64,000 nucleotides of DNA, taken from Rhodospirillales bacterium (GTDB taxonomy: Bacteria; Pseudomonadota; Alphaproteobacteria; Kiloniellales; JACOMY01). Of the stretch, positions 33,631 through 52,475 are shown piece by piece (the stretch's first letter is position 1; each line of letters begins with the position of its first letter). The DNA lies in the NCBI GenBank assembly GCA_963669335.1, contig OY770023.1:3298873-3362872 (forward strand), written 5' to 3'. The notes beneath the pieces are model-generated. The model was not told the origin of the DNA. It searched no databases and saw only the letters and a program-made list of their open reading frames with translations. The translations under genes were made by a program, and so were the position numbers.

Positions 33631-34671
33631 ATGCTCAAGTGGTCCATCATGGCCCCTGCAGCCCTGGCCGCAGCCTGTTTTACCCTCGCCCCGCTGACCG
33701 CATCGGCGGCAAGCCCCACGGTCGAAGCCATCCAAGAACGTGGCACCCTGCTGTGCAGCGGCCACAACGGCAGCTATTTCGGCTTCGTCGAAGTGAACGA
33801 CAAGAACGAGTGGAAGGGCCTCGACATCGATCTCTGTCGTGCGCTCACCACCGCCATCCTGGGCGATCCCACGAAGGCCCAGATCATCCCGCTCAGCTGG
33901 GCACAGCGCTTCCCGGCCCTGCAGTCGGGTGACGTCGATGTCATCATCAAGGCCACCGGCTGGACCATGGGCCGCGACACCGAGCTGGGGCTGCAGTTCA
34001 GCCTGCCCTACTTCTTCGGCGGCACCCAGTTGATGGCGCACGGCGACCTCGGCGTGACCGAGGCCAAAGATCTGGAAGGCGGCACCATCTGCGTCGAAGC
34101 CGGCACCACGATCGAGCGTATCGTCGCCGACTATCTGAAGACCCTGGGTGTCGAGCACACCATGGTCTCCTACGAGAAGGCAGCCGAGCTGCGTTCGGCC
34201 TATCTGGCCAATCGCTGTGATGCCTTCGCCGGCTGGGGCCCCAATCTCGCCGTGCTGCGCGCCACCGAGATCGATAACCCTGATGCCCACATCATCCTCT
34301 CCGACCAGCTGTCCAGCGAGCCGATCGCCGCTGCCATGCGCCAGGGCGATGAGGACTTCGTGGACGTGATCAACTGGATGCTGGCAGCCCTGCTGCTGGC
34401 CGAAGAGCATGGCGTGACCCAGGCCAATGTCGAGGAGATGGCTGCCAATCCGACGAACCCGACGGTTGGCCGTCTGCTGGGTGCCACCCCCGGTATCGGC
34501 GAGCGTCTTGGACTGCGCGATACCTGGGCTCGCGAGATGATCGGTGCGGTCGGCAACTTCGCCGAAATCTATGATCGCAACCTTGGCAAAGACTCTCCCT
34601 ACAAGCTCGACAGGGGCATGAACAACCTGTGGAGCCATGGCGGCGTCCTCTACGCCCCCATCCTTGACTGA
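33631..34671 (+). CDS. aapJ: General L-amino-acid ABC transporter substrate-binding protein (AapJ/BztA family)
   Basis: ATG 33631 and signal peptide MLKWSIMAPAALAAACFTLAPLTASA. Family blocks: FGFVEVNDKNEWKGLDIDLCRAL...ILGDPTK, GTICVEAGTTIE, EPIAAAMRQGDEDF, HGVTQANVEEM. Confidence 0.85.
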   Translation: MLKWSIMAPAALAAACFTLAPLTASAASPTVEAIQERGTLLCSGHNGSYFGFVEVNDKNEWKGLDIDLCRALTTAILGDPTKAQIIPLSWAQRFPALQSGDVDVIIKATGWTMGRDTELGLQFSLPYFFGGTQLMAHGDLGVTEAKDLEGGTICVEAGTTIERIVADYLKTLGVEHTMVSYEKAAELRSAYLANRCDAFAGWGPNLAVLRATEIDNPDAHIILSDQLSSEPIAAAMRQGDEDFVDVINWMLAALLLAEEHGVTQANVEEMAANPTNPTVGRLLGATPGIGERLGLRDTWAREMIGAVGNFAEIYDRNLGKDSPYKLDRGMNNLWSHGGVLYAPILD

Positions 34672-34741
34672 TCGCCCAACCGAGCCAGGCCGCAAAATGC
34701 GGCCTGGCTTTTATCAATAACAAACGACCAGGGAGGTAGCG

Positions 34742-35881
34742 ATGAGCGCGCCAAGCGGCGTTCTGTCAAAAAAGAATAAGGAATATGTGATCCAAGCGGT
34801 CCTGATGACCGTTACGATCCTGATTATCTGGGTGGCAATTTCAAGCGCGCGCACGAACCTCGATGCTCTCGGCATCTCGAGCGGCTTTGGCTTCCTGGAT
34901 CGCGGGACCGGCTGGTCCTATTCCTTCTCGCTGATCGAGCGGTCGATCGACGATACCTATCGCCGGACGCTCTTCATCGGCTTCACGAACACACTCTTTC
35001 TGGGGCTCTTCTCGATCGTCTTGGCCACGCTCCTGGGTTTCCTGATCGGGACCATGAGAGACGCCAAGAACATTGCAACCAAGAGCGCGGCCACGACCTT
35101 CGTCCAGATCTTCCGGAACATCCCGCTGATCCTGCAGCTGGTCTTCTGGTATGCGATGCTGATCCATATGCCGGGTCCCAGACAGTCTTTCGACTTCTTC
35201 AGTCTGGCCTTCCTCTCGAACCGCGGTGCGGTCATTCCCGCGCTCAACATCTCGGCCGGAGTGGTTATCGGCATCATCGCGATCTCTGCCGTCTTCGGCT
35301 TCATCCTGCACTACCTCTGGAAGGCCAAGGTCTCGAAGAAAGTGCTGGTCTGGCTGGTCGGCACCGTCATCGTGACCGTCTTCTTGACCTTCGTCTTCTC
35401 GCCCAAGGGCGAGGCCATGATCTCCGTGCCGGAGCTGAAGGGGCTGCGCTTCGTCGGCGGACTCAATATCTCCGTCGAACTCGTCGCCATGGTCATCGGC
35501 ATCGTGCTCTATGGGGCTGCCTACATCGCCGAGGTCGTGCGTGGAGGCCTGCAGGAAGTGCCGAAGGGCCTCGTTGAGGCCGGGCAGGCTTTGGGGTTGA
35601 ACTCCAGCGCCATCTGGTTCCGCATCAAGATGCCGATGGCGCTGCGCACGATCATTCCGCCGCTGGGCAATCAGTGGATCTTCCTGATGAAGGCCACGAC
35701 CATCGGTGTCGCGATCGGCTTCAGCGATCTCTTCATGATCGTCTCGACCTCTATCACCCAGTCGGGCCAGACCTTGGAGCTGATCGGCATCCTCATGGCG
35801 GCCTTCCTTCTGGTCAACTTCGGGATTGCACAGTTCGTCAACCTGTTGAACGCCCGCATGCAGCTGAAGGGACACAGTTAA
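34742..35881 (+). CDS. aapQ: Amino-acid ABC transporter permease (AapQ/BztB family)
   Basis: 379-aa polytopic protein with the EAA-type loop (AYIAEVVRGGLQEVPKGLVEAGQALGL). Confidence 0.85.
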   Translation: MSAPSGVLSKKNKEYVIQAVLMTVTILIIWVAISSARTNLDALGISSGFGFLDRGTGWSYSFSLIERSIDDTYRRTLFIGFTNTLFLGLFSIVLATLLGFLIGTMRDAKNIATKSAATTFVQIFRNIPLILQLVFWYAMLIHMPGPRQSFDFFSLAFLSNRGAVIPALNISAGVVIGIIAISAVFGFILHYLWKAKVSKKVLVWLVGTVIVTVFLTFVFSPKGEAMISVPELKGLRFVGGLNISVELVAMVIGIVLYGAAYIAEVVRGGLQEVPKGLVEAGQALGLNSSAIWFRIKMPMALRTIIPPLGNQWIFLMKATTIGVAIGFSDLFMIVSTSITQSGQTLELIGILMAAFLLVNFGIAQFVNLLNARMQLKGHS

Positions 35882-35882
35882 G

Positions 35883-36965
35883 ATGACCAGTGTTGCAACC
35901 AACGCTCCTTCGCGCCTTGACCAGGCCCTGCGCTATCTGAAAAAGCGGGCCTTCGGATCGCCAAAAGACGGAGTCATTTCGGTCCTCTTCTTCGGACTTC
36001 TGGCCTACTGCATCTATGTAGCGCTGGATTGGGCCATCTTCTCGGCGGTCTGGTCGGCGGACAACGTAGCGGCCTGTGAAACGGCCAAGGGGGCCTGCTG
36101 GTCGGTCGTCGATGCGCGCCATCGGCTGATTCTCTTCGGCCTCTACCCCTATGACCTGCATTGGCGCTCGACGCTCGCCTGCATCTCGATCGTGGCTACG
36201 GTGATCCTCTCCTGCATCCCCTTCTTCTGGTCGGTCAAACGCCTGGTTAGCCTCTGGGTCGTGGGTTTCGCCGTCTACTACCTGTTGATGGAGGGTAGCC
36301 TGATCGGCCTGCAGCAGGTCACGACCGACCAGTGGGGTGGCTTGGCCCTCACCCTCTTCCTCTTCTCCTCGGTCGTGCTGGTCGGCATGCCGATGGGGCT
36401 GGGCCTCGCCTTGGCCCGCCGCTCCAAGTTGCCGGTGCTGCGTTACGGTGCGACGATCCTGATCGACTTCATCCGTTCGCTGCCGCTGCTGACGACGCTC
36501 TTCACGGCGGCTGTGGTGGTGCCGATCCTGCTGCCGGACTGGCTGCAGGGGGATAAGATCTGGCGCGTCATCATCGCCTTCGGTCTCTTCTTCGGCTGCT
36601 ATCAGGCAGAGATCTTCCGCGGCGGCTTCCAAGCCATCCACAAGGGGCAGTTCGAGGCCGGCAAAGCCTTGGGTCTCGGTTACTGGCAGATCCTTGGCAC
36701 CATCATCCTGCCGCAGGTCTTCCGCCATGCGCTGCCTGGCACCATCAACATGGTGGTTGTGACCTTCAAGGAGACGGCCATCGTCATCATCATCGGCTTC
36801 TTCGATGTCTTGGCCTCAGCCAATGCCGCCTTCGGCACAGGTGAATGGGCGCCCTACTTCCTGGAAGTCTATGCCTTCGTCGGCCTGATCTACTGGCTAT
36901 TTATCTTCTCCCTGGGCCAGTACGGCGAATACCTCAAGAGCCGCATGGCAGTGGCCAAGCACTGA
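35883..36965 (+). CDS. aapM: Amino-acid ABC transporter permease (AapM/BztC family)
   Basis: 360-aa polytopic protein with EAA loop (CYQAEIFRGGFQAIHKGQFEAGKALGL). Starts 1 nt after the aapQ stop. Confidence 0.85.
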   Translation: MTSVATNAPSRLDQALRYLKKRAFGSPKDGVISVLFFGLLAYCIYVALDWAIFSAVWSADNVAACETAKGACWSVVDARHRLILFGLYPYDLHWRSTLACISIVATVILSCIPFFWSVKRLVSLWVVGFAVYYLLMEGSLIGLQQVTTDQWGGLALTLFLFSSVVLVGMPMGLGLALARRSKLPVLRYGATILIDFIRSLPLLTTLFTAAVVVPILLPDWLQGDKIWRVIIAFGLFFGCYQAEIFRGGFQAIHKGQFEAGKALGLGYWQILGTIILPQVFRHALPGTINMVVVTFKETAIVIIIGFFDVLASANAAFGTGEWAPYFLEVYAFVGLIYWLFIFSLGQYGEYLKSRMAVAKH

Positions 36966-36995
36966 CCGAAATATCGCCTCTTGAGCGACGAAGAG

Positions 36996-37036
36996 AGAAG
37001 CCCGCAGAGATCCATCTCTGCGGGCTTCTTCTTTAC
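36996..37036 (+). terminator. Strong rho-independent terminator after aapM
   Basis: AGAAGCCCGCAGAGAT and ATCTCTGCGGGCTTCT are perfectly complementary 16-nt arms (apical bases form the loop), followed by TCTTCTTT. Confidence 0.8.
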
Positions 37037-37225
37037 TGACTGGCACACTCTAGCTGGGGTAGAGGTGGGATAGTGAAGCGGGCGAGCGGTGAACACCCGA
37101 ACCCGTCCTTTTGTTGAGATGCGTCCCGGCGTCCTTTCTCATCAAACCAAGACATGGCTCTGACAACAGACTTATTGTCGTTCTCCGGCTTGACCAGAGT
37201 GCCATTAACCACTTGATGTGCATGC

Positions 37226-37256
37226 AGAAAAATGCCCTCCGATTAAGTCGGAGGGC
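37226..37256 (-). terminator. Rho-independent terminator after the metC-VOC-PDO operon
   Basis: The minus strand reads GCCCTCCGA-CTTAA-TCGGAGGGC followed by ATTTTTCTG, 63 nt downstream of the PDO-like stop. Confidence 0.8.
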
Positions 37257-37318
37257 GACAGCCAACTGTACTCAGATGCGGGAATGACCGGAGGCCGCTA
37301 TCTGCGGCGAAAGCCGCC

Positions 37319-38203
37319 CTAAATCTGGTTGATCGGTACCTTGAGGGCCGGGGTCCCCTCTTCGTCTCTTGGCATCTCGCCGGCGCGCAGATTGACCTGG
37401 ATCGAGGGGATCAGAAGTGCCGGTACGGCAAGCTGCGCATCGCGGGCTTCACGCATGGCGACAAACTGATCGCGGCTGCGGCCGCCACCGACGTGGATGT
37501 TGTTCTGCCGCTCGTCGCCGACCGTGGTCTCCCACGCGATCTCGCGGCCGTTGGGACCATAGTCGTGGCACATGAAGAGCCGGAGCTCGTCCGGCAGGCT
37601 CAAGATGCGCATGATGGAGTCATAGAGAATTCCGGCATCGCCGCCGGGAAAGTCGGCCCGCGCCGAGCCGCCGTCGGGCATGAAGAGCGTATCGCCGACA
37701 AAGCCGGCATCACCCATGATGTGAACCATGCAGGCTGGCGTGTGCCCCGGCGTGTGCAGGGCTACGCACTCCATCCCACCGACCTTGTAGCGATCGCCAT
37801 CCTTGAAGAGGCGATCGAACTGAGAGCCGTCACGCTGGAACTCTGTGCCCTCGTTGAAGATCTTGCCGAAGACCTCCTGCACCTCGCAGATCCCTTCGCC
37901 GATGCCGATGGATCCCCCCAGCTTCTCTTGAATGTAGGGCGCTGCCGAGAGGTGATCGGCGTGGGCGTGGGTCTCGATGATCCACTCCAAGTTCAGGCCC
38001 TGCAGGTCGATGTAGGCGATGATGCGATCGGCGCTCTCGAAAGAGATACGGCCGGCGGCGTAGTTGAGATCCAGGACCGAATCGATCACGGCGCAGGCCT
38101 TGCTGTTCGGGTCTTTGACCACGTAGCTGATGGTGTTGGTGCGCTTATCGAAGAAGGCGACCACCTCTGGCTTGACCGACAGGTCCACTGAGATCTCGTT
38201 CAT
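37319..38203 (-). CDS. MBL-fold hydrolase, type II persulfide dioxygenase-like
   Basis: THAHADHLSAAPYIQEKLGG, ALHTPGHTPACM, VGDTLFMPDGGSARADFPGG, LFMCHDY, FVAMREARD. The length (294 aa) and motif order match bacterial type II PDOs as I recall them. Confidence 0.7.
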   Translation of the reverse strand: MNEISVDLSVKPEVVAFFDKRTNTISYVVKDPNSKACAVIDSVLDLNYAAGRISFESADRIIAYIDLQGLNLEWIIETHAHADHLSAAPYIQEKLGGSIGIGEGICEVQEVFGKIFNEGTEFQRDGSQFDRLFKDGDRYKVGGMECVALHTPGHTPACMVHIMGDAGFVGDTLFMPDGGSARADFPGGDAGILYDSIMRILSLPDELRLFMCHDYGPNGREIAWETTVGDERQNNIHVGGGRSRDQFVAMREARDAQLAVPALLIPSIQVNLRAGEMPRDEEGTPALKVPINQI

Positions 38204-38242
38204 GCAACGTCTCCGCTATCTGCTTTCTGTAAATCTAGGTCC

Positions 38243-38875
38243 TCAGTCCAGTACGACCAAGCCATTGGGTGTGCGAAGCGAGAAGGAGAGGCTCCGCGGT
38301 CCCGGTCGTACCTCCGCCAAGTGATCGATGCCGAGTTGTTCCAGAACCCCGCTCAAGGTGGCCGGATCGGGATGGGTCAGGATGATCTGCTCCAACGCCA
38401 GACCCAGATCCTGCATGCCCTGGCTCGGGTGCGGCCCCGGCGACCATTCAATGAAGGCAGGGATCAAGCCACCTTCCGGCAAAGAGCCGTCCTTCGGCAC
38501 GGTCAGGCGCCAAGACCGTTCACCGCGGCTCAGATGCAAGACCTCTCCAAGGTCCAGTGGGCTCTTGGCAACGACGGCATCCAGATCATCGGTCGCCACG
38601 ACCCAGCAGAGGGCGCGGGGACGCTCGGCAATCCGCGACTTCGTTTCCGGATCATCCAGTGTGAACCAACGGGTTCGGCTGGGTGCCGGAGCGTCTGGAT
38701 CCAATGAGATGACCTCAAAAAAGCGCTCTTGGCCGGCCTGCACCACGCGGTTGTGCGTGCTCATCTGGTCGTGCTTGCCGCCCAGGGGTACCGTGATGCC
38801 CAGCGCATGCTCCATGGCGAGCCGTCCCTGTTCCAGGTCAGCAGCACCAACAGTAAAATGATCGATCTTGTTCAC
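38243..38875 (-). CDS. VOC-superfamily (glyoxalase-like domain) protein
   Basis: 210-aa ORF (GTG start) with IDHFTVGAADLEQG...GGKH... at the N-terminus, typical of glyoxalase-like domain proteins. Lies between metC and the PDO-like gene. Confidence 0.6.
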   Translation of the reverse strand: MNKIDHFTVGAADLEQGRLAMEHALGITVPLGGKHDQMSTHNRVVQAGQERFFEVISLDPDAPAPSRTRWFTLDDPETKSRIAERPRALCWVVATDDLDAVVAKSPLDLGEVLHLSRGERSWRLTVPKDGSLPEGGLIPAFIEWSPGPHPSQGMQDLGLALEQIILTHPDPATLSGVLEQLGIDHLAEVRPGPRSLSFSLRTPNGLVVLD

Positions 38876-38894: not shown

Positions 38895-40067
38895 TCAGTC
38901 GAGAAGCGGCAGTGCCTGTGTGAGATCTCCGATCAGGGTCTCGAGGCTTTCGTTGCCGATGGAAAAGCGCACCACCTGTCCGGGCTCGTCCCAGCCCGCG
39001 GCCGAGCGATGCGGCTTGACCGGCAGCACCAGGCTCTCGAAGCCGCCCCAGCTGGCGCCGATCCCGAAATAGGAAAGCGCATCGACGAAGGCCCGCACCT
39101 GGTCATCCGAGCAGGGCTTGAAAATGACGCTGAAGAGGCCGGCTGCACCTGAGAAATCACGTTTCCAGAATTCATGGCCCGGGCAGTCCGGAAAGGCCGG
39201 GTGCAGCAATTTCAGAACCTGCGGCTGCTGCTTCAGCCACTTAGCCACAGCCATCGCGGCGGCCTCGGCATGCTTCAATCGTATCTCGAGCGTCCTGAGG
39301 CCCCGCAGCGATAGAAAGACATCCAGGGATCCCGGCCGCTCGCCGAAGGTGAGGACGGATTTGCGCATCTCTGCATGAGTGGCCTCGTTGCAGACGATAA
39401 GCCCCAGCATGGAATCGGAGTGGCCGCTCAGGTACTTGGAGCCGGAGTGAACCACGACATCGACGCCCAAAGAGAGCGGCTGGCAGAAAAGCGGCGTGGC
39501 CCAGGTACCATCCAGGATCGAGATCGCGCCGTGGGCCCGCGCCACATCGGCAATCGCGGGAATGTCTGGCACCTCGAAGGTGCCGGATCCAGGCGCCTCA
39601 TACATCACGGCGGCAGTGTTGGGGCGCATCAGCTTGGCGATCTCAGCCCCGATCATCGGGTCGAAGTACTCCACCTCGATCCCGAAGCGCGGCAGCATAC
39701 GGTCGCAGAAGCCCCGGGTGTTGCCATAAACGTGATCGGCGACCAACAGATGGTCGCCGGCCTTAGCGGCGCCCATCAGAGCCATACTAACCGCCATGAC
39801 CCCCGATGAGAGCGCGATGGCACCCGCTGCACCCTCTAGCGCAGCAAAGCTCTCCTCCAGCGCAATACTGCCCTGCGTGCCATAACGTCCGTAATAGAGA
39901 GTGCCCGGCTCGTAGCGGGCATCGCGAGCTGCCTCGAAGGCGCCCAGACTCTCGAAAAGCATGGTAGAACCCTGGTCAATCGGCAGATTCACCAGGCGTC
40001 CGTCCTGCGCCGGCCCGCGACCGAGGTGGGCCAAACGGTCGGCAAAGGAAGAGGCTCTCTTCGTCAT
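38895..40067 (-). CDS. metC: Cystathionine beta-lyase / PLP-dependent Cys-Met-metabolism C-S lyase
   Basis: PLP-Lys motif HSGSKYLSGHSD and family blocks (YGRYGTQGSIALEESFAALEG, GGFESLV). ATG 40067 is preceded by AAAGAGGAAC. The upstream 19 codons of the track ORF are dropped. Confidence 0.8.
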   Translation of the reverse strand: MTKRASSFADRLAHLGRGPAQDGRLVNLPIDQGSTMLFESLGAFEAARDARYEPGTLYYGRYGTQGSIALEESFAALEGAAGAIALSSGVMAVSMALMGAAKAGDHLLVADHVYGNTRGFCDRMLPRFGIEVEYFDPMIGAEIAKLMRPNTAAVMYEAPGSGTFEVPDIPAIADVARAHGAISILDGTWATPLFCQPLSLGVDVVVHSGSKYLSGHSDSMLGLIVCNEATHAEMRKSVLTFGERPGSLDVFLSLRGLRTLEIRLKHAEAAAMAVAKWLKQQPQVLKLLHPAFPDCPGHEFWKRDFSGAAGLFSVIFKPCSDDQVRAFVDALSYFGIGASWGGFESLVLPVKPHRSAAGWDEPGQVVRFSIGNESLETLIGDLTQALPLLD

Positions 40068-40115
40068 CACATGTTCCTCTTTGGGAGCATCGCAGGTGAT
40101 GACATCGGAGACCGA

Positions 40116-40157
40116 GTGTGTCAATATACAAACCAGACGTTCTATATATCAGCACAA
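40116..40157 (-). promoter_or_regulatory. Copy ii of the conserved 42-bp imperfect inverted-repeat element (metC / bisC-like divergent promoter region)
   Basis: The minus strand reads TTGTGCTGATATATAGAACGTCTGGTTTGTATATTGACACAC. This is identical at 31/42 positions with 43862-43903, and the outer blocks are identical. Confidence 0.6.
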
Positions 40158-40169: not shown

Positions 40170-42491
40170 ATGCCAAGTTCTCCGCCACAAGGCCGACGCC
40201 TGACGGCGTCCCACTGGGGCCCAGGTCTGGTGACCGTCTCAGAGGGTCGATTGGTCTCCGTCGATCCGCATCCTGATGATCCGGATCCCTCGCGTATCAA
40301 CGAGAATATCGCGCCCAGCCTCTACGGCTCGGCCAGGGTTATGCGCCCTGCGGTGCGGGAGAGCTATCTGAAGCATGGCCCCCTCGCCCGCCAGGGAGAG
40401 CGCGGCCGCGAAGGCTTCATCGAGGTGAGCTGGGATCGCGCTTTGGATCTAGTCCAGGCCGAGCTTGAGCGCGTTCACCGCGAGCATGGCAACGAGGCCA
40501 TCTTCGGCGGATCCTATGGCTGGTCCAGCGCCGGGCGCCTGCACCATGCGCAGAGCCAGCTGAAGCGCTTCCTCAATGCCGCCGGCGGCTTCGTACGCTC
40601 GGAGGGGAACTACAGCTACAATGCCGCCCTGGTGTTGATGCCGCACATCGTCAAGAACTTCCGAGACCATGTGAAGGAGACCACACGGCTTACCACCGTC
40701 GCCCAAGAGGGCGAGCTTATGGTCATGTTCGGCGGCATTCCGCTGCGCAATGCCCAAGTGACGGACGGCGGCGTCGGCCGGCACCAGGTCAAGGGCGATC
40801 TCATCGCCTGTGCCGAGGCCGGCGTGCGTTTCGTGAACCTGAGCCCGCTGCGTGGCGACGCCGACCAAAAACTGAAAGCCGAGTGGCTGCCGCCGCGTCC
40901 GGGCAGCGACACCGCCGTCATGATGGGCCTGGCCCATACCCTCTTGAGCGAGGGGCTGCACGATCAGGCCTTCCTCGACCGCTACACCGTCGGCTTCGAC
41001 AGGGTTGCGGCCTACCTCCTGGGCAAGACGGACGGCGAAGCCAAGACGGTCGAGTGGGCCGGACGCCTCTCCGGGCTCGACCCCGAGCAGCTGCGCCGGC
41101 TCGCTCGTGAGATGGCGGCCAAGCGCACGATGATCTGCACCGCATTCGGCCTGCAGCGTGCGGACTTCGGCGAACAGGTGCTCTGGATGACCGTCACCCT
41201 AGCGGCCATGCTGGGTCAGATCGGCCTGCCGGGTGGCGGCTACACTATCGGCTATGGCGGCAACGCGGTCATCGGCTCAGCCGACCGGCCGCGACGCTGG
41301 GCGAACTTTTCGCAGGGGCGCAATCCGCTCGATCGTTTCATCCCCGTCGCCATGTCGGCGGAGATGTTGCTGAACCCGGGCGGACACTACGATTACAATG
41401 GTCAGTCCCTCACCTTCCCTGACATCCGGCTGGTCTGGTGGGCCGGCGGCAATCCCTTCCATCATCACCAGGATCTGAACCGTCTGCGCCAGGCCTTTCA
41501 GAAGCCGGAAACCATCATCGTCAACGAAATCAACTGGACGGCAACCGCGCGCCACGCCGACATCGTGCTACCGGTGGCCGCCCCGCAGGAACGAGACGAC
41601 TTCGGCGGCGGCAAGCAGGACTGCTCACTGGTGCCCATGCCCAAGGTGGCGGAACCCGCCGGCGAGGCGCGTTGCGAATTCGATATTTATCAAGAGCTGG
41701 AAGCTCGGATGGACCTGGGCACTGCCTTCAGCGGCGGCCGCACCAAAGAGCAGTGGCTGGAGGCATTGTGGCAGCAGATGCAGGAGGGCTTGGCCGACCT
41801 CGGCCAAGGGCTGCCCGCGCTTCAGGAGTTTCTCGCCGGCGACATGATCCACTTCGAGGATCCCACACCCGACGCGGTCTTCCTTTCCGACTTTCGTGCC
41901 GATCCAGAGACCCACCGGCTGCCGACCCCCAGCGGCAAACTGGAACTGGCCTCGGACGCCATCGCGGGCTTCGGCTATCTAGACTGCCCGGGCCAGGCGA
42001 CCTGGATACCACCGCGCGACTGGGTCGACGGCAGAGCCGAACACTTTCCGCTTCATCTCTTGACCGGGCAGCCGGCAACACGGCTGCACAGTCAATATGA
42101 CAACGGCCCCTTTAGCCTCAGCCGCAAGATCAAGGGCCGAGAGCCGATAATCATCAACAAGGATGATGCAGCAGAACGAGAGATCCAGGACGGCGATGTC
42201 GTCGAGATCTTCAACGATCGCGGCCGTTGCCTGGCCGGTGCCGTGGTGAGCGAGGGCATCCGTAAAGGCGTGCTCTTCCTTTGGACCGGCGCCTGGTATG
42301 ATCCCGACTTCGAAGCTCCCGATCACCGCGATCGGCACGGCAACCCCAATGTGCTGACCCATGACCTGCGCACCTCGCGTTTGGCACAGGGGCCGGCAGC
42401 GCAATCCTCTTACGTCGACATCCGCCCCTTCCGGGAGAAGCTTCCCGAGGTGCGCGCATTCGAAAGCCCCATCAAGGGGCGAGAAAGATGA
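40170..42491 (+). CDS. Cytoplasmic molybdopterin S-/N-oxide reductase, BisC-like (paralog B)
   Basis: Colinear similarity to paralog A (e.g. HGNEAIFGGSYGWSSAGRLHHAQSQLKRFLN vs HGNEAIFAGSYGWASAGRFHHAPSQIHRFLN). Start at ATG 40170 (MPSSPPQGRRLTASHWGPGL). No signal-peptide hydrophobic core. Confidence 0.8.
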   Translation: MPSSPPQGRRLTASHWGPGLVTVSEGRLVSVDPHPDDPDPSRINENIAPSLYGSARVMRPAVRESYLKHGPLARQGERGREGFIEVSWDRALDLVQAELERVHREHGNEAIFGGSYGWSSAGRLHHAQSQLKRFLNAAGGFVRSEGNYSYNAALVLMPHIVKNFRDHVKETTRLTTVAQEGELMVMFGGIPLRNAQVTDGGVGRHQVKGDLIACAEAGVRFVNLSPLRGDADQKLKAEWLPPRPGSDTAVMMGLAHTLLSEGLHDQAFLDRYTVGFDRVAAYLLGKTDGEAKTVEWAGRLSGLDPEQLRRLAREMAAKRTMICTAFGLQRADFGEQVLWMTVTLAAMLGQIGLPGGGYTIGYGGNAVIGSADRPRRWANFSQGRNPLDRFIPVAMSAEMLLNPGGHYDYNGQSLTFPDIRLVWWAGGNPFHHHQDLNRLRQAFQKPETIIVNEINWTATARHADIVLPVAAPQERDDFGGGKQDCSLVPMPKVAEPAGEARCEFDIYQELEARMDLGTAFSGGRTKEQWLEALWQQMQEGLADLGQGLPALQEFLAGDMIHFEDPTPDAVFLSDFRADPETHRLPTPSGKLELASDAIAGFGYLDCPGQATWIPPRDWVDGRAEHFPLHLLTGQPATRLHSQYDNGPFSLSRKIKGREPIIINKDDAAEREIQDGDVVEIFNDRGRCLAGAVVSEGIRKGVLFLWTGAWYDPDFEAPDHRDRHGNPNVLTHDLRTSRLAQGPAAQSSYVDIRPFREKLPEVRAFESPIKGRER

Positions 42492-43444: not shown

Positions 43445-43849
43445 TTACTTCTTCTTCTCTTCGGGGAACTCGACCGGCCCGCCGGCCTTTGCCCAGGAGG
43501 AGAATCCCTCTCTTAGGTGCGCGGCCTCAAAGCCCATGTCTTGAAGCGTGGCCACGGTCAATGCCGAACGCCAGCCCGATGCGCAGTGAAAGATGAAGCG
43601 CTTGTCCTGGGCGAAAATGTCCTTGAAGTAAGGGCTCTTCGGGTCCACCCAGAACTCGGCCATGCCGCGCGGGCAGTGAAAGCTGCCGGGAATGAATCCA
43701 AGCTTCTGGCGCTCGCGCACATCGCGTATGTCGACAACCACGACCGAGGGGTCCTTCGCCAGCTCCATCAGATCGGCGGTCTCCACCTCTTCAATGCGCG
43801 CGCGCGCATTGGCCACCATCTCCGCGACAGAGGTCTTCAACTCCTGCAT
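43445..43849 (-). CDS. Single-domain rhodanese (sulfurtransferase)
   Basis: Active-site loop HCASGWRS. ATG 43849 is preceded by AAAGGAG. The upstream 18 codons of the track ORF are dropped. Confidence 0.8.
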   Translation of the reverse strand: MQELKTSVAEMVANARARIEEVETADLMELAKDPSVVVVDIRDVRERQKLGFIPGSFHCPRGMAEFWVDPKSPYFKDIFAQDKRFIFHCASGWRSALTVATLQDMGFEAAHLREGFSSWAKAGGPVEFPEEKKK

Positions 43850-43861
43850 CCCATTGCTCCT

Positions 43862-43903
43862 TTGTGCTGATATACGGCACGTGCATTTCACATATTGACA
43901 CAA
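43862..43903 (+). promoter_or_regulatory. Copy i of the conserved 42-bp imperfect inverted-repeat element (rhodanese / FAD-oxidoreductase divergent promoter region)
   Basis: TTGTGCTGATATACGGCACGTGCATTTCACATATTGACACAA. The arms TTGTGCTGATAT and ATATTGACACAA are 9/12 reverse-complementary. Confidence 0.6.
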
Positions 43904-45263: not shown

Positions 45264-47351
45264 ATGACCGAGTCTCAAATCCGCGTTGGTGTCGATATCG
45301 GTGGTACCTTTACCGATGTCGCGCTTGAGCACGCAGGCGGCCTGGCCTCCTGCAAGGTGCTGACCGACTACGCGGAGCCCGAGCGCGCGATCGTCAAGGC
45401 GATCGCCCAAGCAAGCGAGCAGGCCGGCGTCTCGCTCTCCGATATCGCTCAGGTGATCCACGGCACGACTCTGGTCACCAATGCGCTGATCGAGCGGCGC
45501 GGTGCGAAGCTGGCCTTCATCACCACCGAGGGCTTCCGCGACGTCATCGAGATGCGAACCGAGAACCGCTTCGAGCAGTACGATCTGGACCTACAACTGC
45601 CCAAGCCTCTGGTGCCCCGCAAGGACCGCTTCACCCTGTCGGAGCGCATCTCGGCCGATGGCGAAGTCCTGCTGGCCCTGGACCAGGCCGAGGTCGAGGC
45701 TCTGGTGGAGCGTGTCGTCAACGCTGGCTATGAGGCAGTCGCGATTGGCTTCCTCCACGCCTATGCCAACCCGGCACATGAGTTCCAGGTCGAAGCCGCT
45801 CTGCGTGCCGCAGCACCCGATCTCTCGATCTCCGTCTCCTCGGTTATCTCGCCGCAGATGCGAGAATTCGCCCGCTTCAACACGGTAATCGCCAATGCCT
45901 ATGTGCAGCCGCAGGTCGCCAGCTACCTGAACCGCCTGGTCGCCCGCCTGAGCGACAGCGGCGTCTCAGCTCCGGTCTTCATGATGCACTCCGGCGGCGG
46001 GCTGATCTCCGTCGAGACCGCCAGCCGTGAGCCGGTGCGCCTGCTCGAGTCGGGTCCGGCCGGTGGTGCTATCTTCGCCGCCGACTTCGCCATGGCGCAC
46101 GGCCTGAACAAGGTGCTCTCCTTCGACATGGGCGGCACCACGGCCAAGATCTGCCTGATCGAAGAGGGTACGCCCAAGACCGCCAACACCTTCGAGGTCG
46201 CCCGCACCTACCGCTTCAAGAAGGGCTCGGGCATGCCGGTCTCCACACCGGTGGTGGAGATGGTCGAAATCGGCGCCGGCGGCGGCTCCATCGCGCATAT
46301 CGACTCCATGGAGCAGATCCGCGTCGGCCCGCAGAGTGCTGCTTCCGAGCCCGGCCCTGCCTGCTATCAGCGCGGCGGCGAAGAGCCGACGGTCACCGAC
46401 TCCAACCTGATGCTGGGACGCCTGGATCCGGACAACTTCGCCGGCGGCGCCATTCCGCTGTCACCCGATCTCGCCAGCCGGGCACTGGCCTCTCGCCTCT
46501 GCAACGGCACCGGACTGGACCCGCAGTCGGCCGCCTTCGGTGTGACCGAGATGGTCGATGAGAATATGGCCAACGCAGCGCGCGTGCACACGGTGGAGAA
46601 CGGCCGCGATATCGAGGCCTTCACCATGATCGCCTTCGGTGGCGGTGCGCCGCTGCACGCCTGTCGGCTCTGCGAGAAGCTGGGCATCGAGCGGGCCATC
46701 GTGCCGCCGGGCGCCGGCGTCGGCTCTGCCATCGGCTTCCTGAAGGCGCCCTTCAGCTACGAGGCGACCCGCGGTCTTTTCCAACGCCTCTCCGCCTTTG
46801 ATCCGGAGAAGGTCAACGAGGCCCTGGCGGCCCTGGAGGAAGAGGCGCGCAGCTTCGTGACCGCAGGCGCCGGCGAGGCCGAGACCACTGCCAAGCTGAC
46901 CATCTTCATGCGCTACGCCGGTCAGGGCTCTGAGATCCCGGTGGTCCTGCCCTATCGCCCTTTCACCAACGAGGACATCGCGATCCTCAAGGAGGCCTTC
47001 GAGGACTCCTATCGCACGCTCTTCGGCCGGGTGATCGAAGATCTTGCGATCGAGATCACCAACTGGTCGCTGGTCGTGGCCTCTGTCCTGCCGGATGTAC
47101 CCAAGGCCGGCCGCCACTTCGAGGGCTTGCCGCTGGAGACCAGCAAGATCCGTCGTTTCTTCGACGCCGCTCTGCGCGAGACGGTCGAGGCCGTCGAGGT
47201 CGAGCGCGAGGCGCTGGAGCCGGGTCTTGCCGTCGACGGCCCCGTCGTCATCGTCGAACGCAACACCTCCACCATCGTCACCTCGGCCTACACGGTCATC
47301 GGTCAGGGCGATGGTTCCCTCCTCCTCCAACGCAAGGGAGCCAGCCAATGA
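45264..47351 (+). CDS. Hydantoinase/oxoprolinase family protein, A (HyuA-type) subunit
   Basis: VGVDIGGTFTDV N-terminal ATPase motif, DMGGTTAKI, and 695 aa in length. Confidence 0.85.
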   Translation: MTESQIRVGVDIGGTFTDVALEHAGGLASCKVLTDYAEPERAIVKAIAQASEQAGVSLSDIAQVIHGTTLVTNALIERRGAKLAFITTEGFRDVIEMRTENRFEQYDLDLQLPKPLVPRKDRFTLSERISADGEVLLALDQAEVEALVERVVNAGYEAVAIGFLHAYANPAHEFQVEAALRAAAPDLSISVSSVISPQMREFARFNTVIANAYVQPQVASYLNRLVARLSDSGVSAPVFMMHSGGGLISVETASREPVRLLESGPAGGAIFAADFAMAHGLNKVLSFDMGGTTAKICLIEEGTPKTANTFEVARTYRFKKGSGMPVSTPVVEMVEIGAGGGSIAHIDSMEQIRVGPQSAASEPGPACYQRGGEEPTVTDSNLMLGRLDPDNFAGGAIPLSPDLASRALASRLCNGTGLDPQSAAFGVTEMVDENMANAARVHTVENGRDIEAFTMIAFGGGAPLHACRLCEKLGIERAIVPPGAGVGSAIGFLKAPFSYEATRGLFQRLSAFDPEKVNEALAALEEEARSFVTAGAGEAETTAKLTIFMRYAGQGSEIPVVLPYRPFTNEDIAILKEAFEDSYRTLFGRVIEDLAIEITNWSLVVASVLPDVPKAGRHFEGLPLETSKIRRFFDAALRETVEAVEVEREALEPGLAVDGPVVIVERNTSTIVTSAYTVIGQGDGSLLLQRKGASQ

Positions 47352-49012
47352 GCGACCGCAGCATCGACTACCAGATCATGTGGAACCGCTTGATCGCGGT
47401 GGTGGAAGAGCAGGCCATGACCCTGGTGCGCACGGCCTTCTCCACCTCCGTGCGCGAAGCGGGCGATCTCTCCGCCGGCCTCTTCGATCGGGGCGGCCGC
47501 ATGATGGCGCAGGCCGTCACCGGAACACCCGGCCACGTCAATGCCATGGCAGAGAGCGTCGGCCACTTCGTCGAGGCCATCGGCCAGGATCAGATCTTCG
47601 AGGGCGATGTCTTCCTGACCAACGATCCCTGGTTGGGGACGGGGCACCTGCACGACATCACCGTGGTCACCCCCAGCTTTCGCAATGGTCAGCACATCGG
47701 CTTTCTGGCCTGCACCGCGCATGTGGTGGATATCGGCGGCCGCGGCTTCGGCCCCGACGCCAACGAGGTCTATGAAGAAGGCCTGCTGATCCCGATCATG
47801 AAGTTCGCCGAGCGCGGCACGGTGGACCGGACCTTAATCCGCTTCCTGCGCGCCAACACGCGCGAGCCTGACCAGGTGGTCGGCGACATCTACTCTCTGG
47901 CCGCCTGCAACGAGATCGGCGATCGCCGCCTGCAGGACATGCTGGCAGAGTTTCAGATGGGCGATCTGGAGGGGCTCTCCGACTTCATCTACCAGACCAG
48001 CCGCCGTGCCACCTTGAAGGCCATCCAAGCCCTGCCGGACGGTGCCTTCGAGAACGACATGCGGGTCGACGGCTACGACACGCCGGTCGAGATGAAGGTA
48101 CGGCTCTCGATCAAGGGCGACGCTTTGCTGGCTGACTTTGCCGGGACCTCCGGGCCCAGCGCTTTCGGCGTCAACGTCCCGCTGGTCTACACTCGCGCCT
48201 ATGCTTGCTATGGCTTGAAGTGTGCCATCGCCCCGCAGGTGCCGAACAACACCGGCTCTCTCGAGCCCTTCGAGGTCACCGCACCCGACGGCTGCATCCT
48301 GGCGGCTCGCCGGCCGGCACCGGTCTCGGTGCGCCACGTGCTTGGTCATCTGGTGCCGGACGTGGTGCTGGGTGCGCTCCACAAATGTTTGCCGGACAAG
48401 GTGCCGGCAGAGGGCTCGTCAGCGCTTTGGAACATTCAGATCGGCGCGCGTCCCAAGGATCCCTCCTCCGGCCTGCCGAACCGCGAGATCTTGATGTTCA
48501 ACTCCGGCGGCACCGGTGCCAGGCCCAGCTCTGATGGGCTGAGCGCCACTGCCTTCCCCTCCGGCGTCTCCACCATGAGTGTGGAGGCCAGCGAGCATGT
48601 CGGTCCCATCGTGATCTGGCGCAAAGACCTGCGCGAAGGCTCTGGTGGCGCTGGTGCCCATCGTGGCGGGCTCGGCCAGACCATCGAGATCGAGCCACGC
48701 GCGGGCTATGAGCTCTTCTTCAACGCCATGTTCGACCGCATTGACAATCCGGCACGCGGCCGTGAGGGCGGGGGCCCGGGCGGTGCCGGCTCGGTCGCGC
48801 TGGCCGATGGCACGCGCCTCAAGGGCAAGGGCCGGCAAAAGGTTCCGGCCGGGTCGCGTCTGGTGTTGCAACTGCCCGGCGGTGGCGGCTATGGCGATCC
48901 CGGCCAGCGCCCCCGCGAGCAAGTGCGCGCCGATCTGGAAGCCGGCTACATCACCCAATCACAAGCCACGGGCGACTATGCCCTTGATCAAGAAAGTGGA
49001 GAGACCGAATGA
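47348..49012 (+). CDS. Hydantoinase B/oxoprolinase family protein (HyuB-type subunit)
   Basis: IMWNRLIAVVEEQAMTLVRTAFSTSVREAGDLSAGLFD is the typical HyuB start. ATGA overlap with hyuA. Confidence 0.85.
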   Translation: MSDRSIDYQIMWNRLIAVVEEQAMTLVRTAFSTSVREAGDLSAGLFDRGGRMMAQAVTGTPGHVNAMAESVGHFVEAIGQDQIFEGDVFLTNDPWLGTGHLHDITVVTPSFRNGQHIGFLACTAHVVDIGGRGFGPDANEVYEEGLLIPIMKFAERGTVDRTLIRFLRANTREPDQVVGDIYSLAACNEIGDRRLQDMLAEFQMGDLEGLSDFIYQTSRRATLKAIQALPDGAFENDMRVDGYDTPVEMKVRLSIKGDALLADFAGTSGPSAFGVNVPLVYTRAYACYGLKCAIAPQVPNNTGSLEPFEVTAPDGCILAARRPAPVSVRHVLGHLVPDVVLGALHKCLPDKVPAEGSSALWNIQIGARPKDPSSGLPNREILMFNSGGTGARPSSDGLSATAFPSGVSTMSVEASEHVGPIVIWRKDLREGSGGAGAHRGGLGQTIEIEPRAGYELFFNAMFDRIDNPARGREGGGPGGAGSVALADGTRLKGKGRQKVPAGSRLVLQLPGGGGYGDPGQRPREQVRADLEAGYITQSQATGDYALDQESGETE

Positions 49013-49761
49013 GCGATAAACCCATCGCGCTGGTAACCGGAGCCGCCCAGGGCATCGGTTACGCCTGCGCCGAGGCCTTGGCTGAGGACGGCGCGCGCGT
49101 GGTTCTGTCGGATATCAAAGAGGACGGCGTCACGGCCGCTGCCGCCAAGCTGGGTGGCGATGCCCTGCCGCATGTCTGCGACATGGGCGACGCGGACCAG
49201 GTGACGGCCATGTTCGACCGCATCGAGTCCGAGGTCGGCCCGGTCTCGATCCTGGTGAACAACGCCGGCATCGCGCTGCCCGGCGAGTTCCTGGAGACCC
49301 CGCTGGAGAACGTGCGCAAGGTGATCGACGTCAATCTGGTCGGTGTCTTCCTGGCCACACAGCGCTCCGCCAAGACCATGATCGCGCATGGCATCGAGGG
49401 GTCGATCATCAACATGTCCTCGATCAACGCCATCGTCTCGATCCCGCAGATCCCGACCTACTGCGCGACCAAGGGCGGGATCATGCAGCTGACCAAGGCA
49501 ACGGCCCTGGCGCTGGCTCCGCACAACATTCGGGTCAATGCCGTCGGCCCCGGCTCCGTCGATACGGAGATGATGGCTGGCGTCAACGCCAACCCGGAAG
49601 CGATGGCGCGCCTCATGTCGCGGACCCCGCTAAAGCGGGTGGGAACCCCGCGCGAGATCGGCGACGTGGTGGCCTTCCTGGCCAGCAAGAAGGCCAGCTA
49701 CATCACCGGCGAGACGATCTATGTCGACGGCGGCCGTCTCGGCATGAACTACACCTGTTAG
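49009..49761 (+). CDS. Short-chain dehydrogenase/reductase (SDR)
   Basis: TGAAQGIGYA cofactor motif, NNAG, and catalytic YCATK. ATGA overlap with hyuB. Confidence 0.88.
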   Translation: MSDKPIALVTGAAQGIGYACAEALAEDGARVVLSDIKEDGVTAAAAKLGGDALPHVCDMGDADQVTAMFDRIESEVGPVSILVNNAGIALPGEFLETPLENVRKVIDVNLVGVFLATQRSAKTMIAHGIEGSIINMSSINAIVSIPQIPTYCATKGGIMQLTKATALALAPHNIRVNAVGPGSVDTEMMAGVNANPEAMARLMSRTPLKRVGTPREIGDVVAFLASKKASYITGETIYVDGGRLGMNYTC

Positions 49762-49775
49762 GGAGCTCCGGAACC

Positions 49776-51686
49776 ATGTCGCGCTATCCAGAGACCTATG
49801 CCGCCTGGCGGAACGATCCCGAAGCCTTCTGGGGAGAGGCGGCCAAGGAGATCGACTGGTTCACGCCGGCCGAGCGGGTCTTCAACCCCGACGCCGGCGC
49901 CTATGGCCGCTGGTTCGACGGAGCGACCTGCAACACCTGTTGGAACTGCGTCGACCGCCATGTCGAGGCCGGCAACGGCTCACGCTCGGCCCTGCTCTAC
50001 GACAGCCCGGTCACCGGCATGCGGCGGACCTACAGCTTCAGTGACCTGCAGGCCGAGGTCGGAGCGCTGTCCGCCGTCATGCGGGCCCAGGGCGTCGGCA
50101 AGGGCGACCGCGTCATCATCTATATGCCGATGGTGCCGGAGGCGATCTTCGCGATGCTGGCAACGGCGCGCCTTGGCGCCATCCATTCCGTGGTCTTCGG
50201 CGGTTTTGCGGCGCGCGAACTGGCGACCCGGATCGACGACGCCAAGCCGAAGCTGATCATCTCGGCCTCATGCGGCATTGAGACCAAGCGCATCATCCCC
50301 TACAAGCCCTTGCTGGACGAGGCCATCGAGATCTCTGAGGCCAAGCCGGATCACTGCATCGTCCTGCAACGGCCCATGCACCCCTGCGACCTGATCGAGG
50401 GGCGTGATCTCGACTACGGCGAGGCCGTGGGTGCCGCTCGTGGCAAGGGCGAGACGACGGAGTGCGTGCCGGTCCTGGCAACAGACCCGCTCTATATCCT
50501 CTACACCTCCGGCACCACCGGACAGCCCAAGGGCGTGGTGCGCGACAACGGCGGCCACATGGTAGCGCTGAAGTGGACCATGGCCAATCACTATGGCCTA
50601 GAGCCGGGCGAGGTCTTCTGGGCTGCCTCCGACGTCGGCTGGGTCGTCGGTCACTCCTACATCTGCTATGGCCCGCTGCTGCATGGCTGCGGCACGGTGC
50701 TCTATGAGGGCAAGCCGGTCGGAACGCCCGATGCCGGTGCCTTCTGGCGGGTGATCGAAGAGAACGAGGTGGTCGCCCTCTTCACCGCGCCGACGGCCTT
50801 TCGGGCACTGAAGAAAGAGGACCCGCAGGGCGCGCTCATCAATCGCTATGACCTGCGCAAGTTTCGCACCCTTTTCCTCGCCGGCGAGCGCGCCGATCCC
50901 AACACCATTCAATGGGCTGAAGAGAAGCTGCAGCGCCCGGTGATCGACCACTGGTGGCAGACCGAAACCGGCTGGGCCATTGCCGGCAACCCAGTTGGCC
51001 TGGGCGCCATGCCGGTCAAATACGGCTCGCCCGGCGTGCCCATGCCCGGATACGATGTCTCCGTCCTGGATGATGAAGGCCATGCTGTCGCCGCCGGGAC
51101 CCTGGGCAACATCGTGATCAAGCTGCCGCTGCCGCCCTCAGGCTTCCCGACTCTCTGGCAGGCAGAGGCCCGCTTTCACTCCGCCTACATGGAGGAGTTT
51201 CCGGGCTACTACGCCACCTCCGACGCCGGGATCATCGACGAGGACGGCTACGTCTTCATCATGGCCCGCACCGACGACATCATCAATGTCGCCGGCCATC
51301 GCCTCTCGACCGGCGCCATGGAAGAGGTCATCGCCAGCCATCCCGACATTGCCGAATGCGCTGTCGTTGGCGTGGCCGACCAGATGAAGGGCCAGATGCC
51401 GCTTGGCCTCTTCGTCGTGAATGACGGGGCCGGCCGTGCCGCCAGTGACCTGGAGCGCGAGTTGGTCAAGTTGGTGCGCGAGAAGATCGGCCCCGTGGCC
51501 GCCTTCAAGACCGCAATCGAGGTCCCGCGCCTGCCCAAGACCCGCTCCGGCAAGGTGCTGCGCGGCACCATTCAAAAGATCGCCGATCAGGAGCCCTGGA
51601 AGATGCCCGCAGCGATCGACGATCCAGAGATCCTGACCGAGATCGAATCCGCTCTGTCGCAGCGCGGCTACGCCTCGGGCGCCTAG
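49776..51686 (+). CDS. prpE: Propionate--CoA ligase-like acyl-CoA synthetase
   Basis: 636 aa. N-terminal YAAWRNDPEAFWGEAAKEIDWF, the AMP-binding motif YTSGTTGQPKGV, and C-terminal PKTRSGKVLR. Length and N-terminus are PrpE/Acs-like. The actual substrate is not determinable. Confidence 0.7.
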   Translation: MSRYPETYAAWRNDPEAFWGEAAKEIDWFTPAERVFNPDAGAYGRWFDGATCNTCWNCVDRHVEAGNGSRSALLYDSPVTGMRRTYSFSDLQAEVGALSAVMRAQGVGKGDRVIIYMPMVPEAIFAMLATARLGAIHSVVFGGFAARELATRIDDAKPKLIISASCGIETKRIIPYKPLLDEAIEISEAKPDHCIVLQRPMHPCDLIEGRDLDYGEAVGAARGKGETTECVPVLATDPLYILYTSGTTGQPKGVVRDNGGHMVALKWTMANHYGLEPGEVFWAASDVGWVVGHSYICYGPLLHGCGTVLYEGKPVGTPDAGAFWRVIEENEVVALFTAPTAFRALKKEDPQGALINRYDLRKFRTLFLAGERADPNTIQWAEEKLQRPVIDHWWQTETGWAIAGNPVGLGAMPVKYGSPGVPMPGYDVSVLDDEGHAVAAGTLGNIVIKLPLPPSGFPTLWQAEARFHSAYMEEFPGYYATSDAGIIDEDGYVFIMARTDDIINVAGHRLSTGAMEEVIASHPDIAECAVVGVADQMKGQMPLGLFVVNDGAGRAASDLERELVKLVREKIGPVAAFKTAIEVPRLPKTRSGKVLRGTIQKIADQEPWKMPAAIDDPEILTEIESALSQRGYASGA

Positions 51687-51725
51687 AATCACAAAGAACA
51701 GAAATCAACACGGAGGGAGAAACCC

Positions 51726-52475
51726 ATGGCACAAGATGACACCCCTGCAGTCAAGATCACCAACCTGCACAAGTACTACGGTGCCTATCACGCCCTGAAG
51801 GACATTAACCTGACGGTCGCGAAGGGTGAGCGCATCGTGATCTGCGGGCCTTCGGGTTCCGGCAAGTCGACGATGATCCGCTGCATCAATCAGTTGGAGG
51901 AGCACCAGTCCGGCGAGATCGAGATTCAAGGCGACCCGATCCACGCCGATGCCTCCAACATCGAAGAGATGCGGCGCGAGGTCGGGATGGTGTTTCAGCA
52001 CTTCAACCTCTTCCCGCATATGACGATCCTGGAGAACTGCACCCTGGCACCCCGCCTGGTGCGCGGCACGCCGCAGGCTGAGGCCGATGCCGAGGCCATG
52101 CGCTTTCTGGAGAAGGTGCAGATCGCCAATCAGGCGGCCAAGTACCCGGGCCAGCTCTCCGGCGGACAGCAGCAGCGTGTGGCCATCGCCCGCGCGCTTT
52201 GCATGCGCCCCGACATCTTGCTGTTCGACGAGCCGACCTCGGCCCTCGATCCGGAGATGATCGGCGAGGTGCTGGATGTCATGGTGACCCTGGCGCAAGA
52301 AGGCATGACCATGCTCTGCGTCACCCACGAGATGGGCTTCGCCAGAAAGGTAGCCGACAGGGTCATCTTTATGGATGCGGGCGAAATCATCGAAGAGGGC
52401 GATCCCGAGAGCTTCTTCACCAACCCGAAGAGTGATCGGACCCGCACCTTCCTGGATCAAGTTCTAAGCCACTAG
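51726..52475 (+). CDS. aapP: Amino-acid ABC transporter ATP-binding protein (AapP/BztD family)
   Basis: Walker [10 protein letters not shown], signature LSGGQQQR, Walker [12 protein letters not shown]. Extended blocks ([56 protein letters not shown]) match polar-amino-acid/AapP ATPases. Confidence 0.85.

Follow-up and report, generated by a model that had tools for sequence, protein, structure and literature searches.

Gene organization of the importer and the catabolic operon

The region between 33.6 and 52.5 kb of a 64-kb window from a Rhodospirillales bacterium (the window being the whole stretch of DNA analysed; all coordinates are window positions) carries genes for an AapJQM-type ATP-binding cassette (ABC) amino-acid importer and, far downstream of aapM, a gene for a polar-amino-acid-type ABC ATPase. 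The original prediction had explained this separation by the insertion of a block of unrelated operons between aapM and its ATPase gene, or by recruitment of the ATPase into a catabolic operon. From sequence comparison we consider it likely that the 33.6–52.5 kb region is one conserved cluster and a probable regulon, in which the ATPase encoded at 51726–52475 is the cognate AapJQM subunit and its gene ends a co-regulated catabolic operon. The importer genes and that operon comprise the following features.

33631–34671, + strand: aapJ-like gene, periplasmic family-3 amino-acid-binding protein (SBP_bac_3, PF00497; TIGR01096, E 3.6e-41)
34742–35881, + strand: aapQ-like permease gene (HEQRo_perm_3TM, TIGR01726, 48.0 bits, cut-off 42.2)
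35883–36965, + strand: aapM-like permease gene (HEQRo_perm_3TM, TIGR01726, 52.1 bits, cut-off 42.2)
36996–37036, + strand: intrinsic terminator closing the aapJQM unit (inverted repeat and folding)
43966–45249, + strand: flavin adenine dinucleotide (FAD) oxidoreductase of the DAO family, closest to the L-pipecolate oxidase AmaA (NF050086, E 5.3e-140, below cut-off)
45264–47351, + strand: hyuA, part of an ATP-dependent hydantoinase/oxoprolinase/caprolactamase-type enzyme (profile and structure matches)
47348–49012, + strand: hyuB, part of the same type of enzyme (profile and structure matches)
49009–49761, + strand: short-chain dehydrogenase/reductase (SDR; profile search)
49776–51686, + strand: PrpE/Acs-type short-chain acyl-coenzyme A (CoA) ligase (NF007815, E 8.9e-217, below cut-off)
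51726–52475, + strand: polar-amino-acid-type ABC ATPase, proposed cognate subunit of AapJQM (profile searches, structures, synteny and trees)
52530–52573, + strand: hairpin 3' of the ATPase gene, a possible operon end (folding z -3.6; not a canonical U-tract terminator)

AapJ, whose closest solved chain is 4z9n (E 1.7e-82), begins with a hydrophobic stretch, read in the sequence, that agrees with the signal peptide of polar-amino-acid-binding proteins, and it is 72–93% identical to its relatives. AapQ and AapM are both long (about 360–380 amino acids) and both carry the HEQRo 3-TM domain. No ATPase gene lies directly 3' of aapM. The unit is closed by a perfect inverted repeat with 16-nt arms of 100% complementarity (36996–37029) followed by UUCUUU, which was missed by a simple terminator scan (loop 2–4 nt) and confirmed by folding (-37.3 kcal/mol, z -5.6), since none of 200 shuffles folded equally well. 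A tblastn search of the 64 kb revealed no AapQ/M-like permease besides aapQ and aapM, and no second polar-amino-acid ATPase; the only other nucleotide-binding domains were those of an RbbA-type protein.

The ATPase has the Walker A, LSGGQ signature, Walker B and H-loop motifs (including VTHEMGFA), scores E values between 1e-95 and 1e-82 against the GlnQ, EhuA, TcyN and HisP models, and has 4u00, ArtP and HisP as its closest solved chains. Among the matches listed, it is 66–72% identical to ATPases of contiguous aapJQMP/bzt-type operons, including those of Rhodobacter capsulatus and a Rhizobium strain, confirming that it is of the AapP/BztD kind; an exact-protein look-up found no record of it. 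It is the last gene of an operon in which the FAD oxidase gene, hyuA, hyuB, the SDR gene, prpE and the ATPase gene are separated by 14, -4, -4, 14 and 39 nt, respectively, the last spacer (from the prpE end at 51686) being unstructured (z +1.5) and holding a GGAGG ribosome-binding site. From aapM to the ATPase gene there are 14,760 nt with the terminator in between, and the contiguous operon of aap/bzt loci is not found here. In these respects, namely the positions of aapJQM, the strong terminator, the missing ATPase gene after aapM, and the kind and position of the distant ATPase, the original prediction was borne out.

Conservation of the cluster and the question of an insertion

The stretch between aapM and the FAD oxidase gene is occupied by the following features, for which several start positions of open reading frames had to be corrected (metC 40066, bisC 40170, iclR about 42562, rhodanese 43850; likewise the FAD oxidase gene, 43966).

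37234–37256, - strand: terminator of the persulfide-dioxygenase-like gene (folding)
37319–38203, - strand: persulfide-dioxygenase-like metallo-beta-lactamase-fold protein (dioxygenase part of Blh; NF040641, E 9.5e-109)
38243–38875, - strand: VOC/Glyoxalase_3 family protein (PF13468, E 2.9e-36)
38895–40066, - strand: MetC-type cystathionine beta-lyase, a C-S lyase (TIGR01324, 415.8 bits, cut-off 365.9)
40170–42491, + strand: BisC/TorZ-family molybdopterin S/N-oxide reductase (TIGR00509, E 7.8e-263)
about 42562–43347, + strand: IclR-family regulator (IclR domains)
43445–43850, - strand: single-domain rhodanese (profile search)

An AapM-anchored search with one genome per species returned 66 loci, and in about 50 of them the genes for VOC, MetC, BisC, IclR, rhodanese, FAD oxidase, HyuAB, SDR and PrpE followed aapJQM. 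The set that recurs beside aapJQM in dozens of species also includes the persulfide dioxygenase, and the VOC gene stands next to metC in relatives as well. Carriers were found in Rhodospirillales, Kiloniellales, the Paracoccaceae/Roseobacter group (Rhodobacterales), Hoeflea, Stappiaceae, Hyphomicrobiales, Roseibium, Marinomonas and Granulosicoccus. The best AapM match (89% identical) came from a Rhodospirillales metagenome-assembled genome (MAG); the closest genome found was the Rhodospirillales MAG OY770029.1, with proteins 75–93% identical. Thus the intervening operons, which had been called unrelated to the importer, turned out to be syntenic with aapJQM across several orders, and they have an operator in common with it (see below).

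We further searched with HyuB as the anchor, which gave 80 species-level loci, and counted as cluster-type any ATPase at least 70% identical to that of the window. Such an ATPase was in view in 44 of the 80 loci, where its gene lay downstream of prpE (37), after the SDR gene (4), after aapM (2) or by the VOC gene (1), the last case being Marinomonas, in which the VOC gene precedes it and the FAD oxidase gene lies on its other side. The prpE-ATPase layout in 37 of 80 loci therefore makes the split seen in the window a common, conserved one, of old standing and with a wide distribution among marine Alphaproteobacteria. Although its gene shifts position, the ATPase stays within the cluster, as in the locus L066 with the order SDR-ATPase-aapJQM, and the gene set holds together despite rearrangement in distant taxa (including Marinomonas, L066, L027 and L048), with the persulfide dioxygenase gene, prpE, hyuAB and ridA as optional members. 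The last of these, an open reading frame of about 120 amino acids of the RidA/YjgF family, lies between prpE and the ATPase gene in 27 of the 37 prpE-ATPase loci (for example L240, about 14276–14640; the 26 others are in Rhodobacterales/Hyphomicrobiales), and is missing from the window as well as from the closest Rhodospirillales loci. One further locus (L006, 325–7056) holds two tandem aapJQM sets, neither with an ATPase gene after it, whose AapJ/AapM identity to the window is 56–61% in one set and 77–87% in the other.

This conservation bears directly on whether a recent insertion of about 14.8 kb between aapM and aapP split a contiguous aapJQMP operon. Canonical aap/bzt operons are contiguous, and two species (L004/L230 and L233) have, within this very cluster, the contiguous aapJQM-ATPase version that the original prediction had proposed to look for. 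However, these variants still carry VOC, metC, bisC, iclR, rhodanese, FAD oxidase, hyuAB and SDR genes right beside the transporter genes; as for the split itself, related genomes largely show it. In dozens of species from several orders aapJQM is found together with these intervening genes, and aapJ shares its operator with the very genes said to be inserted. Composition gave no break either: GC content and GC3 were smooth across 37.0–51.7 kb, and the tetranucleotide signature of this stretch correlated with the rest of the window at r = 0.96. We found no tRNA genes, and at the borders of the 14.8-kb stretch neither flanking direct repeats nor mobile-element remnants, and the features of a genomic island (deviant composition, mobility genes, tRNA genes or repeats, absence from relatives) were not seen. 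Given the synteny and the lack of any signature in composition or at the borders, a recent insertion is therefore very unlikely, and we give it next to no credence. Elsewhere in the window composition does change, as between 59000 and 64000 the GC skew changes sign (about -0.07 to +0.15, near 59–60 kb), GC content drops to 0.535 over the final 2 kb, and the 60–64 kb stretch has the lowest tetranucleotide correlation with the rest (r = 0.75).

Proposed pairing of the ATPase with AapJQM and the common operator

Whether the ATPase is the partner of AapJQM was assessed from its co-occurrence with the permease genes. The ATPase was present in 39 of 50 assessable loci showing aap/sulfur genes, and in 0 of 11 loci that had the FAD oxidase-hyuAB-SDR genes and a full 10-kb upstream view without aap/sulfur genes (Fisher p = 1.7e-6). 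The plasmid p449297 of Paracoccus seriniphilus keeps VOC, metC, iclR, rhodanese, FAD oxidase, hyuAB, SDR and prpE genes and lacks aapJQM, the ATPase gene and bisC; since it is without both aapJQM and the ATPase, the ATPase tracks the permeases and not prpE. This variant (L307, 6132–20335) holds no transporter, and downstream of its metC and VOC genes are genes for Tpa (hypotaurine/taurine-pyruvate aminotransferase) and an aldehyde dehydrogenase, which is a possible hint at the substrate chemistry. Among the matches listed, every ATPase at least 73% identical to that of the window sits in such a cluster, while nearly all of those at most 72% identical are encoded after a canonical AapM/BztC-like permease.

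The phylogenies showed the same association. For canonical sequences to compare with, we used the matches listed in genome scans seeded with the ATPase and PrpE, all of them generic AapP/BztD and PrpE relatives. In the ATPase tree, 41 alphaproteobacterial sequences with a prpE or SDR link formed one clade with 100% bootstrap. The cluster ATPases as a whole grouped at 66% with those encoded in the contiguous aapJQMP operons nearest to them (group C: Shinella, Rhizobium sp. BK602 and Roseovarius). Cluster AapM proteins likewise formed a clade (100%) that is sister to group C AapM (100%). The cluster proteins are thus sister to the nearest contiguous group and not within it (AapM 100%, ATPase 66%), and because both trees show the same grouping, the permease and ATPase histories agree. 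Cluster-linked ATPases (after prpE, SDR or VOC genes) differ from the canonical proteins at ten positions, among them 111 (W to L) and 56 (R to Q); the ATPases of the contiguous variants L004, L230 and L233 have intermediate signature residues, and the arrangement of these variants could be ancestral or a replacement. These data are consistent with a model in which the ATPase and the permeases descend together from an aapJQMP-type operon and only the position of the ATPase gene shifted within the cluster.

An alternative is that the ATPase at 51726–52475 is a general or shared subunit, or serves another importer, and that AapJQM is energized by a canonical AapP encoded elsewhere. Eleven of the 50 loci with aap/sulfur genes have no cluster-type ATPase in view within 10 kb, therefore an ATPase encoded in trans may suffice in some genomes, and the identity of 66–72% to canonical AapP/BztD proteins among the matches listed is compatible with a shared subunit. 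Sharing is also documented in this family: BgtA of Anabaena PCC 7120 serves both N-II and Bgt, while system N-I is encoded by scattered nat genes (PMC4500139). Like these, the window has a polar-amino-acid-family ATPase gene apart from its permease genes. Unlike BgtA, however, the window ATPase stays in the same conserved cluster and regulon, even where its gene has been relocated, and appears to be dedicated. Moreover, it tracks the presence of aapJQM rather than of prpE or hyuAB, it belongs to a cluster-specific clade with signature residues, and the window lacks any other polar-amino-acid permease set. We consequently regard a shared ATPase as unlikely.

A dedicated ATPase in a second operon is of use to the importer only if both operons are switched on together, and a common operator would provide for that. 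The 17-nt motif GTGCTGATATAYRGMAC has exactly three matches in the 64 kb (0.33 expected by chance; 0 of 100 shuffles reached three), one in each promoter region, which gives good support to the shared promoter element and the co-regulation that had been predicted.

33593–33609, + strand: operator copy 1, GTGCTGATATATGGAAC, 22 nt upstream of the aapJ start codon
40139–40155, - strand: operator copy 2, in the metC/bisC divergent promoter region
43864–43880, + strand: operator copy 3, in the rhodanese/FAD oxidase divergent promoter region

In relatives, searched at up to 2 mismatches in 2.7 Mb, 144 of 147 matches lay beside cluster genes (overlapping loci count some sites twice): 45 precede aapJ, 70 precede the FAD oxidase gene and most others are in the metC/bisC region. 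The consensus of the motif, TGTGCTGATATAYRGAACA, is an imperfect palindrome of roughly 19 bp. An IclR-type regulon would have its regulator gene within the cluster and a common palindromic operator at the regulated promoters, and both are seen here; the cluster IclR protein, which matches the BhcR model (E 1.8e-45, below cut-off), is most likely the binder of this operator; through it the aapJ, metC/bisC and rhodanese/FAD oxidase promoter regions would be switched together. All three intergenic regions also hold a TTGACAC -35-like box (33544–33553; 40113–40122, - strand; 43890–43899), followed in the aapJ region by TATGCC 18 nt further on. Divergent from aapJ lies a second BisC/TorA-family molybdopterin oxidoreductase gene (31139–33469, - strand; 49% identical to the cluster bisC), and operator copy 1 falls in the intergenic region common to both. 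Since it has no orthologue in related loci (best 52%), this paralogue looks extra and genome-specific.

The operator also bears on the possibility that the three operons are mere neighbours with independent functions, whose order is conserved by ancestry and not by a pathway or regulon. The link between the operons does rest on sequence comparison, and cluster content varies in its optional members. In addition, the FAD oxidase-hyuAB-SDR genes with rhodanese and iclR also occur alone with other transporters and may be a separable module; the neighbours of loci with these genes only (L260, L306 and L237) are heterogeneous. Against this, the gene set stays intact through rearrangements in distant taxa, and one conserved operator stands at all three promoter regions in many genera, which makes independent neighbours a highly improbable explanation.

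Metatranscriptome contigs matching the Marinovum algicola locus are weak evidence that several cluster genes are transcribed; one spans the junction of prpE and ridA and others map inside the ATPase gene, and none was found across the ridA-ATPase junction. In the window, prpE and the ATPase gene are probably co-transcribed, judging from the short unstructured spacer, the ribosome-binding site and the conservation of the arrangement. The window sequence was present only in four runs of one sample, and the same organism label has Hi-C and whole-genome shotgun (WGS) runs of >100 Gb; on account of this single-organism sample with Hi-C and large WGS runs, the source of the window is probably a bacterium that lives in association with a eukaryote.

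Several observations weigh against a cluster with a dedicated ATPase. Besides the eleven loci without an ATPase in view, the contiguous-type ATPases (L004, L230 and L233) fall outside the main cluster clade, therefore the history of the ATPase was not one simple relocation, and all trees were bootstrapped neighbour-joining trees only. The sequencing runs in which the window is present gave only DNA-like contigs, and zero reads came from the RNA run and a WGS run that carry this species label. Finally, the physical pairing of the ATPase with AapQM is predicted, and operator binding by the IclR protein is inferred.

Proposed function and comparison with known systems

The enzyme set suggests, at the level of compound class, that the cluster probably imports and degrades a sulfur-containing, possibly S-oxidized, amino or imino acid. 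The steps would be to reduce an S-oxide, oxidize a secondary amine, open a lactam, cleave a C-S bond, activate a short acid with CoA and deal with sulfane sulfur. The cluster BisC is probably cytoplasmic, as it has no twin-arginine translocation (Tat) signal; no close solved structure was found for the FAD oxidase or the VOC protein. In relatives without prpE (L007, L008 and L009, between aapM and the VOC gene; L258, after the SDR gene) we found genes for a family III CoA-transferase and an enoyl-CoA hydratase, together with an unknown protein of about 190–207 amino acids and, in L008, an SDR. The replacement of prpE by a CoA-transferase and enoyl-CoA hydratase suggests that CoA activation of a short acid is obligatory. 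HyuB relatives on Rhizobium plasmids were followed as a functional lead and set aside, for they belong to a different cluster with a Liv-type transporter, an aminotransferase and a thiamine pyrophosphate enzyme.

One specific candidate is a marine organosulfur amino or imino acid such as a cyclic thia-imino acid S-oxide of the chondrine type, degraded by an undescribed pathway. Chondrine is 1,4-thiazane-3-carboxylate S-oxide, and such cyclic thia-imino acid S-oxides are made by algae. In this scheme, AapJQM and the ATPase would import the compound, the cytoplasmic BisC-like enzyme would reduce the S-oxide, the pipecolate-oxidase-like enzyme and the SDR would turn the ring into a lactam, and HyuAB would open the lactam with ATP. 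The MetC-like lyase (with RidA in relatives) would then cleave the C-S bond, the PrpE-like ligase would activate the thiol-acid, and the rhodanese and persulfide dioxygenase would dispose of the sulfur. This assignment is a long shot, drawn from homology at the family level. If it is true, having the ATPase gene close the catabolic operon would create an interlock, with uptake energized only while the degrading enzymes are made. A literature search (chondrine/thiazane, combinations of the cluster enzymes, aapJ/Q/M/P) returned no description of the cluster or of a split aap system.

Other units flank the cluster. Directly after the ATPase gene, 52734–57640 encodes an HlyD-type adaptor, an RbbA-type double-ATPase/ABC-2 fusion (above the NCBIfam cut-off; 909 amino acids) and an ABC-2 permease. 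These form a system of the exporter type that has no relation to the importer. On the other side, 26135–31018 holds a LysR gene and then, on the - strand, genes for an aldehyde dehydrogenase, an alkaline-phosphatase-superfamily phosphodiesterase and a class-V aminotransferase, resembling a phnW/phnA/phnY-type unit for 2-aminoethylphosphonate degradation, and 20580–26116 holds genes for a LysR regulator, a TRAP transporter (DctP, DctQ and DctM), a 3-hydroxyisobutyrate-dehydrogenase-like protein and a DSBA-like thioredoxin-fold protein.

AapJQMP of Rhizobium leguminosarum and BztABCD of Rhodobacter capsulatus (TC 3.A.1.3) are general or acidic amino-acid ABC importers, and the window system shares their four-component architecture and protein families. 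Among the matches listed, its AapJ and AapM are 50–55%, its AapQ 38–42% and its ATPase 68–72% identical to those of the nearest contiguous operons. It differs from them in that the ATPase gene is non-adjacent and ends a catabolic operon 14.8 kb away, and in that its proteins are a subfamily of their own tied to a sulfur-related cluster, for which no specific NCBIfam model reaches cut-off. An iclR gene inside the cluster and a palindromic operator in divergent promoters are shared with other IclR-regulated clusters, namely pca/pob and that of BhcR of the beta-hydroxyaspartate cycle, whereas the enzyme set is different. Similarly, the FAD oxidase is closest to the AmaA model of AmaA/AmaB pipecolate catabolism, at a score below the curated cut-off, but the cluster has no AmaB homologue; and HyuA is closest to the N-methylhydantoinase 7hk5 and caprolactamase-type 6yra chains, in line with the ATP-dependent lactamases (N-methylhydantoinase, caprolactamase, 5-oxoprolinase), again with scores below curated cut-offs. 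The cluster combines these enzymes with four that are found in none of the pipecolate and lactamase pathways: S-oxide reductase, C-S lyase, rhodanese and persulfide dioxygenase.

What is new here is the conserved placement of an importer ATPase at the end of a co-regulated catabolic operon, together with an uncharacterized regulon. For annotation this means that aapJQM without an adjacent ATPase gene should not be called incomplete or interrupted, as in many marine genomes the partner ends a co-regulated operon. The regulon, of about 19 kb and widespread, joins an amino-acid importer to enzymes for S-oxide reduction and C-S cleavage, a lactamase-type enzyme and proteins that handle sulfur. Its cultured carriers include Marinovum algicola FF3, Leisingera sp. 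ANG-M1, Tateyamaria omphalii, Epibacterium ulvae U95 and Marinomonas, which makes the proposals directly testable. Because many of the named carrier strains come from algae or invertebrates, the cluster is a concrete candidate for breaking down an organosulfur compound that hosts or algae produce.

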